Source: Yuukianura sp. NJ FZ-2021
Lineage: Eukaryota
Reading direction: 5' to 3'
Length of the DNA stretch: 64,000 bases
Assembly: GCA_046563655.1 (NCBI GenBank)
Contig: CM102286.1
Location: forward strand, 10,230,001 to 10,294,000
Part shown: positions 21,497 to 21,987 of the stretch, one piece after another
Layout: each line of letters starts with the position of its first letter
Numbering within the stretch: position 1 is the first letter of the stretch
Program-made: the position numbers and the translations under genes
The notes under the pieces: generated by a model
Told to the model about the DNA's origin: nothing
What the model saw: the letters and a program-made list of their open reading frames with translations, nothing else
Databases searched by the model: none

Positions 21497-21987
21497 TTAT
21501 ACTGGAAGCTCTCTTCCCAAACGTCGCAGTTCTTCATCTCGTCTGTAATTCTCAACTGTAACCCTGCGCTTTCTCTCCGTTCTGATTCTATGCGCCTGCG
21601 TAACCAGGACATAGGCCATGACTGAAATTGGTACTAATAACAGAATGAGTAAGCAGCAAATTATAATGTCAAATACGTATTCAGTATGTGCCATCCCCTG
21701 TTGGATCTGCAATTGCGATGACAACTCTTCAGCTTGGATATCGTTCTCCAGCGCGTTTACCGCTTGATATTTCAGTTGGTCGTTATAGACGTTATCATAT
21801 GTGAATCCAATTTTTTTGAGAACTCACCACCATATCCGAAAAGTGACCTAACCTTAGTTATGAATTCCCCCAAGTTGTAAATTTTGCCGAGTGCCTTCGG
21901 GGCAAGTTGGAGTAGTCCAGATCCTGTGATTTCTGTTGAACAGAAGCACAAAATGAATACAAAAACGCTTAATCTTACTCCTTGCAT
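21497..21987 (-). CDS. LINE ORF3: putative small type-I membrane protein (~163 aa; one frameshift in an A7 run near 21815)
   Basis: Signal peptide MQGVRLSVFVFILCFCSTEITG, amphipathic GLLQLAPKALGKIYNLGEFITKVRSLFG, helical YNDQLKYQAVNALENDIQAEELSSQL, TM IIICCLLILLLVPISVMAYVLV and basic tail RIRTERKRR. Confidence 0.6.

Follow-up and report, generated by a model that had tools for sequence, protein, structure and literature searches.

A 64,000-nucleotide stretch of the genome of Yuukianura sp. NJ FZ-2021 (GenBank assembly GCA_046563655.1, contig CM102286.1, positions 10,230,001 to 10,294,000 of the forward strand), referred to here as the window and numbered from its first letter, contains a copy of a long interspersed nuclear element (LINE) with a third open reading frame (ORF). 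This ORF3 is located between ORF2 and a 3'-terminal hairpin with an A-rich tail, and it is very probably a genuine third gene of a LINE lineage, maintained by selection. LINEs are taught as elements with one or two ORFs that stay in the cell expressing them. A third LINE gene for an integral membrane protein, which is conserved over deep divergence and resides inside the element, lies outside this accepted anatomy. A preliminary description made from the letters of the window had proposed an element of this kind, and its claim of a LINE lineage with a third ORF is borne out by the continuity of the ORF in other copies, by a conserved protein family and by the LINE setting of the homologues.

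ORF3 is encoded on the minus strand. Its ATG at 21987-21985 and the TAA in the ORF2 frame at 21977-21975 overlap by 13 nt, in agreement with the preliminary description. For a comparison with other copies of the family, we used Logan contigs from four coded runs over positions 20700-23600; runs X1 and X2 stem from one sample, X4 has another organism code and comes from another study, and X5 is a metagenome. The word depths of these contigs were not taken as copy numbers. The in-frame TAA at 22049-22047, which interrupts ORF2 in the window, is a Leu codon in the family contigs of X1, X2 and X4. The natural end of ORF2 is therefore position 21975, as had been suggested, and it overlaps the start of ORF3. 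In the window copy, ORF3 is split into an upstream frame (21987..21772, 71 aa, P0001) and a downstream frame (21694..21497, 65 aa from its ATG), which is open from 21823 and gives 108 aa from stop to stop (P0002). The two frames overlap solely around an A7 run at 21811-21817. Directly 3' of this run, the family contigs contain one extra base, a T on the coding strand (an A behind 21808 on the plus strand), with depths of 164.1/164.1 in X1, 233.8/233.8 in X2 and 11.6/22.8 in X4. ORF3 is therefore one continuous frame of 163 aa (59+1+103), open in the family contigs of all three runs. One additional base thus joins the frames as predicted, but it is a T beside the run and not an eighth A. It encodes a Phe, and the same column holds Phe or Tyr in 12 of the 13 full-length homologues.

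The frame of the window copy would also be restored by removal of the 65 nt between a GTGAGT at ~21824 and an AG at ~21761, so that one might see here a spliced pair of host exons, or simply two chance ORFs in a LINE 3' untranslated region (UTR), and no gene of the element. However, the homologues run colinearly through the supposed intron, which contains three invariant residues, and other copies are one base longer; the intron was therefore ruled out. As the homologues are moreover found with E values down to 3e-10, we consider the probability that there is no such gene to be negligible.

A comparison of the window with the X1 contig that covers ORF3 points to selection. This contig has 13 differences, 11 of which are listed, and all five of the listed substitutions in ORF3 are synonymous, where a share of 0.23-0.29 would be expected (P = 0.0006-0.002; with both unlisted differences placed in ORF3 and counted as non-synonymous, P = 0.008-0.025). 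For comparison, three of the eight listed X1 differences in ORF1 are synonymous. Among the differences listed, the one in ORF3 that is specific to X4 changes a Gly to a Val. The preliminary description had named as contrary evidence other copies that lack ORF3, random stops within it and a one-off capture of a host gene; we encountered none of these.

A HMMER search with P0002 against 1.84 billion representative proteins gave seven matches with E <= 1e-3, spanning 3e-10 to 6e-5. All seven proteins are 147-167 aa long, and residues 3-103 of P0002 correspond to their residues ~46-156; a profile search added four further clusters of the family. Metagenome, ENA or Logan assemblies are the source of all these relatives, and the sole name given to any of them is 'hypothetical protein'. 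In the alignment, P0001 corresponds to the N-terminal third of the homologues and P0002 to the remainder, and the N-terminal part of the window ORF3 is 37-52% identical to four of 12 family query proteins (tblastn). Nine columns are invariant in an alignment of 15 sequences, and five of the invariant residues are spaced exactly seven apart (Tyr65, Gln72, Asn79, Gln86 and Gln93 in the numbering of P0005). Pfam gave no match with either half of ORF3 and no family common to more than two of the 15 members. Neither a word-indexed protein search with P0002 nor a metagenome scan with P0002 alone returned a match; a scan of viral contigs yielded 121 pattern matches, of which none was confirmed, and a language-model search (Atlas) with P0005 reached a best score of 0.81, which is under the useful range. 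Foldseek with the ORF3-family model gave a single row in BFVD (E 5.9) and none in PDB, which carries little weight, as one long helix makes a poor query. Judged by these searches, the ORF3 proteins form a new family, for which no relative was found in Pfam, in PDB or among viruses.

The sole match in a sequence-profile search of PDB was human KCNE2 (2m0q; E 0.0054, 19 bits, 66 profile positions). It extends over the juxtamembrane helix, the transmembrane (TM) segment and the basic tail, and the stripe of invariant Gln, Asn and Tyr residues points to a specific polar interface with a partner. ORF3 could accordingly be a LINE gene acting on the host, with a product that serves as a small single-pass subunit or pore-former, KCNE-like or viroporin-like, and modulates a channel, stress of the endoplasmic reticulum (ER) or defence. 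But the 19 bits derive mostly from the TM segment and may reflect shared composition, no Pfam family is common to more than two of the 15 members, and no host partner is known, so that we regard a host-directed role as improbable.

That ORF3 belongs to a LINE is further supported by the genomic context of its homologues. Metagenome contigs were scanned with a pattern built from five aligned sequences, and seven loci (L001-L007) were obtained. The six strongly matching loci all carry a LINE landmark, that is, the ORF2 C-terminus and/or the 3' hairpin with its tail. In L001, L002, L004 and L006, the ORF3 homologue begins 201-325 nt past the stop of a homologous LINE ORF2 C-terminus. These C-termini are homologous to each other and to that of the window (tblastn, 1e-46 to 3e-4), which matches L002 at 4e-8 and L001 at 3e-4, and the ORF2 of L004 has a match to RVT_1 with E 1e-17. 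A hairpin of ~30 nt and an A-rich tail follow ~120-215 nt past the ORF3 stop in L001, L002, L003 and L005, and the same hairpin directly precedes the (TAAA)n tail in the window. In the alignment of the five hairpin sequences, 87% of the cells are paired and three of 11 pairs are changed on both sides; one of 500 shuffles attained the paired-cell percentage, and one of 500 the covariation score. A search of the element against Rfam gave two chance-level rows only (E ~8). The contigs of L004 and L006 end 112 and 144 nt past ORF3, too early to show whether a hairpin follows, and L005 begins inside ORF3.

In L003, no ORF2 remnant was found upstream of ORF3 by tblastn, and the ORFs next to it gave no significant match in Pfam. 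The segment L003:652-1351 holds an intact ORF3 homologue followed by the LINE hairpin and tail and is apparently a 5'-truncated copy with a complete protein-coding gene. Truncated copies of this kind are the commonest LINE copies, and L003 illustrates that they can retain an intact protein-coding gene.

The divergence of ORF3 also parallels that of the neighbouring part of ORF2. The nearest pairs coincide, with identities of 44% for ORF3 and 50% for the ORF2 C-terminus between L001 and L002, and of 47% and 45% between L004 and L006; all other pairs of loci range from 26 to 41% for ORF3 and from 23 to 33% for ORF2. By this comparison, ORF3 is conserved as much as the adjacent part of ORF2, and the two have travelled together. 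This bears on the idea of ORF3 as a passenger that was gained from a host or a virus by 3' transduction or template switching and is useless to the LINE. LTR (long terminal repeat) elements and Penelope-like elements are described as capturing extra ORFs (PMC5408684, in the part of the article available), and in the window an A-rich run at 21341-21411, located ~90 nt past ORF3 in a lengthened 3' UTR, could be the scar of an old capture. A passenger would, however, hardly be kept open at 26-47% identity in at least six LINE lineages with the same ORF2 C-terminus and/or hairpin, nor would it be expected to diverge in step with ORF2 and to show substitutions biased to synonymous sites. As there is also no stand-alone host copy among the seven loci, we judge a useless passenger to be very improbable. 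A more specific version, capture of a polyadenylated host mRNA by template switching as the origin of the window ORF3, was rejected: ORF3 is found in the same place in lineages without the A-rich run.

Compared with L001-L003 and L005, the 3' UTR of the window's family is ~300 nt longer. Its part from 20948 to 21315 is found in an X1 contig with a word depth of 447, as against 164 for the ORF3 contig, and there may be many 5'-truncated copies or a 3' module in common with another repeat.

The copy in the window is 2,438 bp long, lies on the minus strand (20917-23354) and consists of the following features, given from 5' to 3' of the element:

23355..23367, minus strand: 5' target-site duplication ATTGTATCAATTG, an exact 13-mer and one of two matches in the window
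20917..23354, minus strand: whole LINE copy, internally deleted and otherwise broken, bounded by the target-site duplications and by the ends of the X1 and X2 family contigs
22597..23304, minus strand: ORF1, 235 aa (P0003), an intact open reading frame with coiled-coil-like helices and then a mixed alpha/beta part
22271..22520, minus strand: 5' stub of ORF2 with the start of the endonuclease domain, one base short at 22345/22346 relative to the family contigs (X1, X2, X4)
22270..22271, minus strand: junction of the large internal ORF2 deletion (X1 records 2 and 3; X4 records 19 and 20)
21975..22270, minus strand: C-terminal region of ORF2 with a CX2C..H..C knuckle and a premature in-frame TAA at 22047-22049 (weak zf-RVT match; tblastn to L001 and L002)
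21811..21987, minus strand: N-terminal part of ORF3 with signal-peptide-like and amphipathic segments and the start of the conserved motif, aligning with the N-terminal parts of the homologues
21808..21817, minus strand: ORF3 frame break, the A7 run and the two following bases, with one base missing (family contigs; homologues uninterrupted)
21497..21810, minus strand: C-terminal part of ORF3 with the conserved ectodomain helix, TM segment, basic tail and stop (HMMER matches 3e-10 to 6e-5)
21341..21411, minus strand: A-rich run within the 3' UTR (repeat flag 21366-21414; contigs break there)
20942..20971, minus strand: conserved 3'-terminal hairpin just ahead of the tail (alignment with L001, L002, L003 and L005)
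20917..20942, minus strand: (TAAA)n tail, read from the sequence
20904..20916, minus strand: 3' target-site duplication, an exact 13-mer

The 13-bp target-site duplication noted in the preliminary description is confirmed: ATTGTATCAATTG is exact at 20904-20916 and 23355-23367, and these are its only matches in the window with up to one mismatch, for 0.26 expected (two or more in six of 100 shuffles). The copy has no LTRs, and the exact duplication and the 3' (TAAA)n tail are features of a non-LTR element. Its 5' end is full length, as the family contigs of X1 and X2 stop at 23353. From there, the copy comprises a 50-nt leader, ORF1, ~250 nt of the start of the endonuclease, the deletion junction, the last ~290 nt of ORF2, ORF3, a 3' UTR of ~550 nt, the hairpin and the tail. 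From either side, contigs of X1 and X4 follow the window as far as 22270/22271 and then extend for 630-1,045 bases that are absent here, and the window copy therefore has a large internal deletion in ORF2. With this deletion, a nonsense codon in ORF2 and one-base losses in both ORF3 and the endonuclease stub, the copy is dead.

ORF1 is intact and ends ~90 nt ahead of the ORF2 stub, so that the order of ORF1 and ORF2 is that of a LINE. No Pfam family was matched by ORF1. The C-terminal piece of ORF2 in the window gives a weak match to zf-RVT in Pfam (E 0.014). In a table of 85 relatives, most of the top-scoring ones carry PF14529 and/or PF03372 plus PF00078; the window itself keeps ORF2 stubs only. 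In PDB, ORF2 matches R2 proteins best (4e-11) and human L1 ORF2p less well (3.5e-6), an order that is uninformative on the clade.

According to its sequence, the ORF3 product is a protein of ~150-165 aa whose hydropathy is that of a small membrane protein with one pass. The signal-peptide-like start and the TM segment claimed earlier are both recovered: the window ORF3 has an N-terminal hydrophobic segment, and its strongest stretch of 19 residues has a mean Kyte-Doolittle hydropathy of 2.95. An N-terminal hydrophobic segment, followed by small residues, is seen in all 12 full-length members of the family, as is a TM segment at residues 97-108. Also in all 12, an ectodomain of 79-90 aa precedes the TM segment, and a tail of 21-42 aa with a net charge of +2 to +4 follows it, with basic clusters ~5-20 residues from the TM segment. 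The net charge of the ectodomain is -3 to -6 in 11 members and 0 in one; ectodomain cysteines are present in one of the 12 and N-x-S/T sites likewise in one of 12, and none of the proteins starts with MG. The tail contains a conserved motif with the consensus I-x-x-Y-x-R-x-x-E-L. Past the presumed signal peptide, the members have a hydrophobic or amphipathic region, with poor conservation, low model confidence and a hydrophobic moment of up to 0.47 in the window protein. An AlphaFold2 model of P0005 with a 15-row alignment (mean pLDDT 75.7) shows one continuous helix from residue 65 to 160, which passes through ectodomain, TM segment and tail with a pLDDT above 90 over most of its length. The ectodomain would consist of a hydrophobic or amphipathic stretch, a Gly-rich turn and a long helix with a polar stripe that runs into the TM segment. 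A pair of cysteines in the window protein had been put forward as a possible palmitoylation site. As this pair is located in the outer half of the TM segment and is not conserved, the matching columns being Cys in some members only, palmitoylation is unlikely and the pair is a poor candidate.

Several known systems offer themselves for comparison, and the closest in logic are small membrane proteins with a role in cell-cell passage. The sORF2 proteins of MDG1-group insect LTR elements (412, Mdg1, Stalker2, Blood, Tabor) are described as short TM proteins with which capsids pass directly from protrusions of follicle cells into the oocyte, without Env, a route for which there is experimental support (PMC11952523, Voichek et al., bioRxiv 2025; this and what follows from the part of the text available). 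Like ORF3, sORF2 is a short accessory single-pass membrane protein that is sense-encoded on a retrotransposon and has an amphipathic ectodomain motif and a basic patch past the TM segment; some Lepidoptera have it downstream of pol (in 7 of 22 consensus sequences; PMC11952523). However, sORF2 proteins have 63-107 aa with an ectodomain of ~30 aa, a frequent N-myristoylation motif and no signal peptide (PMC11952523), and they are encoded by capsid-making LTR elements, whereas ORF3 is found on a LINE and has 147-167 aa, a signal-peptide-like start, an ectodomain of 79-90 aa and no MG start. Several features that define sORF2-type proteins are thus lacking in the ORF3 family. The search reported for sORF2 covered consensus sequences of Metaviridae only, and the term 'non-LTR' does not occur in the available text of that article (PMC11952523).

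The FAST (fusion-associated small transmembrane) proteins of reoviruses (p10, p13, p14, p15, p16, p22) are likewise small and cross the membrane once, in the N-out/C-in orientation, and they have a polybasic juxtamembrane motif as well as patches of amphipathic or hydrophobic character. They are described as having no signal peptide, their TM segment acting as a reverse signal anchor, and a small acylated ectodomain, which in p14 has 36 aa and is myristoylated (PMC3952855, in the part available). The ORF3 family differs from them in its separate N-terminal hydrophobic segment and its longer ectodomain, and no match to them in sequence or fold was found. The juxtamembrane polybasic motif is present in the family, a tiny acylated ectodomain is not, and, by hydropathy, neither is the absence of a signal peptide. 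The env- or FAST-like label of the preliminary description fits only loosely: the polybasic tail and the single TM segment agree with it, whereas the signal-peptide-like start, the size of the ectodomain and the missing acylation motif do not, and no viral relative was found. ORF3 resembles FAST and sORF2 proteins in logic, not in family.

The likeness to env-type ORF3s of LTR elements such as errantiviruses, and to the ORF3s of the rotifer Vesta elements, consists in a third ORF past the polymerase that encodes a membrane protein, although those genes sit on LTR elements. A canonical env protein is ~600 aa long and possesses a furin site, cysteines, hairpins of heptad repeats and a part that binds the receptor; all of these are absent from the ORF3 family. 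With one helix, at most 167 aa and no Pfam env family, the ORF3 proteins also lack the two heptad repeats arranged as a hairpin and the surface subunit of class I fusion proteins and Env TM subunits. For Vesta4, an ORF3 of 220-230 aa with TM regions, a coiled coil and unknown function is described (PMC5408684, in the part available). Among LINEs, ORF0 of primate L1 is the accepted third ORF; it is antisense, located in the 5' UTR, 71 aa long and primate-specific, and it does not encode a membrane protein, and the available text names ORF0 and reverse ORFs as the only extra ORFs of L1 (PMC5203782). In the full-text CC-licensed literature of PMC and bioRxiv, which the search covered, we found no LINE that has an additional ORF downstream encoding a membrane protein.

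What might such a protein do for a LINE? To our knowledge, target-primed reverse transcription itself requires no membrane protein, and ORF3 therefore most plausibly serves trafficking or transmission. We tentatively favour a membrane-active factor for cell-to-cell transfer, a possibility that we put somewhat short of even and that draws on the analogies above. In the window's family, with its 13-nt stop/start overlap, ORF3 might be translated by termination-reinitiation; this mode of expression would not be conserved, because other lineages have spacers of 201-325 nt. The protein would be inserted into the ER, travel to the cell surface or another limiting membrane and self-associate via its long ectodomain helix. 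There it could open a path for the LINE ribonucleoprotein (RNP) into a neighbouring cell, for instance from the soma to the germline, in an action functionally analogous to that of sORF2, the FAST-like protein of insect LTR retrotransposons. Because it needs neither capsid nor budding, a cell-cell fusogen would be well matched to a LINE.

A number of points weigh against this proposal and the data behind it. Conservation is highest at polar residues of the ectodomain helix and not in a hydrophobic fusion motif, and the model shows no helical-hairpin (HR1/HR2, heptad repeat) architecture. Its N-terminal third is made up of short, low-confidence helices with a pLDDT of 48-61. No viral relative of ORF3 was obtained with Pfam, the PDB profile search, Foldseek against BFVD and PDB, or the viral contig scan, and several hallmarks of FAST and sORF2 proteins fail, as set out above for the start, the ectodomain, the missing MG and the length. 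The N-terminal segment looks like a cleavable signal peptide and the topology is probably N-out/C-in by the positive-inside rule, which is well established; both cleavage and topology are deduced from hydropathy and charge only. The bias of the ORF3 substitutions to synonymous sites, and hence the selection it indicates, rests on five listed substitutions and is suggestive, not conclusive. Lastly, the seven outside loci were all picked up via ORF3 itself and represent no more than two metagenome data sets.

The conservation of the tail leads to another explanation, according to which ORF3 acts inside the cell as a membrane adaptor, whose basic tail holds the RNP at the ER, the nuclear envelope or vesicles and thereby aids its assembly, protection or nuclear entry. 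The I-x-x-Y-x-R-x-x-E-L motif and a basic cluster are indeed found in the tails of all members. There is also a precedent among LINEs, as the esterase (SGNH) ORF1 of CR1, L2 and RTEX elements is thought to tie the element to membranes or lipids and to act in membrane-dependent transport or localisation (PMC5408684, in the part available), although this is an enzyme in the ORF1 position and not a downstream integral membrane protein, and it has no sequence relation to ORF3. For ORF1 of our element, the look-alikes found with the Atlas language model are mostly arthropod clusters, and part of them carry the baculovirus FP domain Baculo_FP_2nd (PF25298; score 0.93, 197 of 256 features). The baculovirus FP protein is linked to how membrane proteins are trafficked to the inner membrane of the nucleus. 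Yet this lead comes without support from Pfam or other HMMs, the single-sequence structure model of ORF1 is unusable (pLDDT 41), and the strongest conservation in ORF3 lies on the luminal or extracellular helix and not on the tail. We therefore consider an intracellular adaptor to be rather unlikely.

Of about the same low probability is a bolder form of the cell-to-cell transfer proposal, in which the LINE lineage would be 'infectious' between cells. ORF3 would then be a minimal fusogen or membrane-breaching protein that passes a capsid-less RNP from soma to germline or between individuals, and transposon classes would be able to exchange the module, given that L007 has a relative in the same overlap position behind a PIF1-like helicase gene. 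L007 is a weaker ORF3 relative (hhalign probability 97.5%, E 8e-12, 50 columns), and neither of the two LINE landmarks, the ORF2 C-terminus and the hairpin, is present at this locus. In L007:3-960, there are a signal-peptide-like start, the conserved motif Y-x-D-V-Y-N-D-Q-L and a TM segment. The ATG and the stop of a preceding ORF, which resembles the C-terminus of a PIF1 helicase (PDB matches 2e-5 to 3e-3), share an overlap of 8 nt, and this overlap mirrors the ORF2/ORF3 arrangement of the window. One might speculate from L007 that a module of the ORF3 type may be common to a Helitron-like element.

For the wider question of whether non-LTR elements use membranes for trafficking or cell-to-cell spread, ORF3 is a concrete candidate that can be cloned. 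The question is timely, as FAST-like small proteins have just been shown to perform cell-to-cell transfer for insect LTR elements.

Some further observations concern the surroundings of the element. The flanks at 20661-20916 and 23355-23600 show that the LINE sits in a very abundant repeat with GTTGA(C/T)ACAAT-like units and inverted copies, for which the summed contig word depths are ~7,000-11,000 in X1 and X2. One X4 contig links position 20875 to 23355 via 28 other letters, possibly an unoccupied site in the other organism. On the plus strand, a 166-aa ORF at 29766-30266 resembles, by eye, the N-terminal part of a transposase of the mariner/Tc1 type. Two near-identical stretches at ~12712-12840 and ~33500-33630, also on the plus strand, represent either an unrelated dispersed repeat or a duplicated gene segment.

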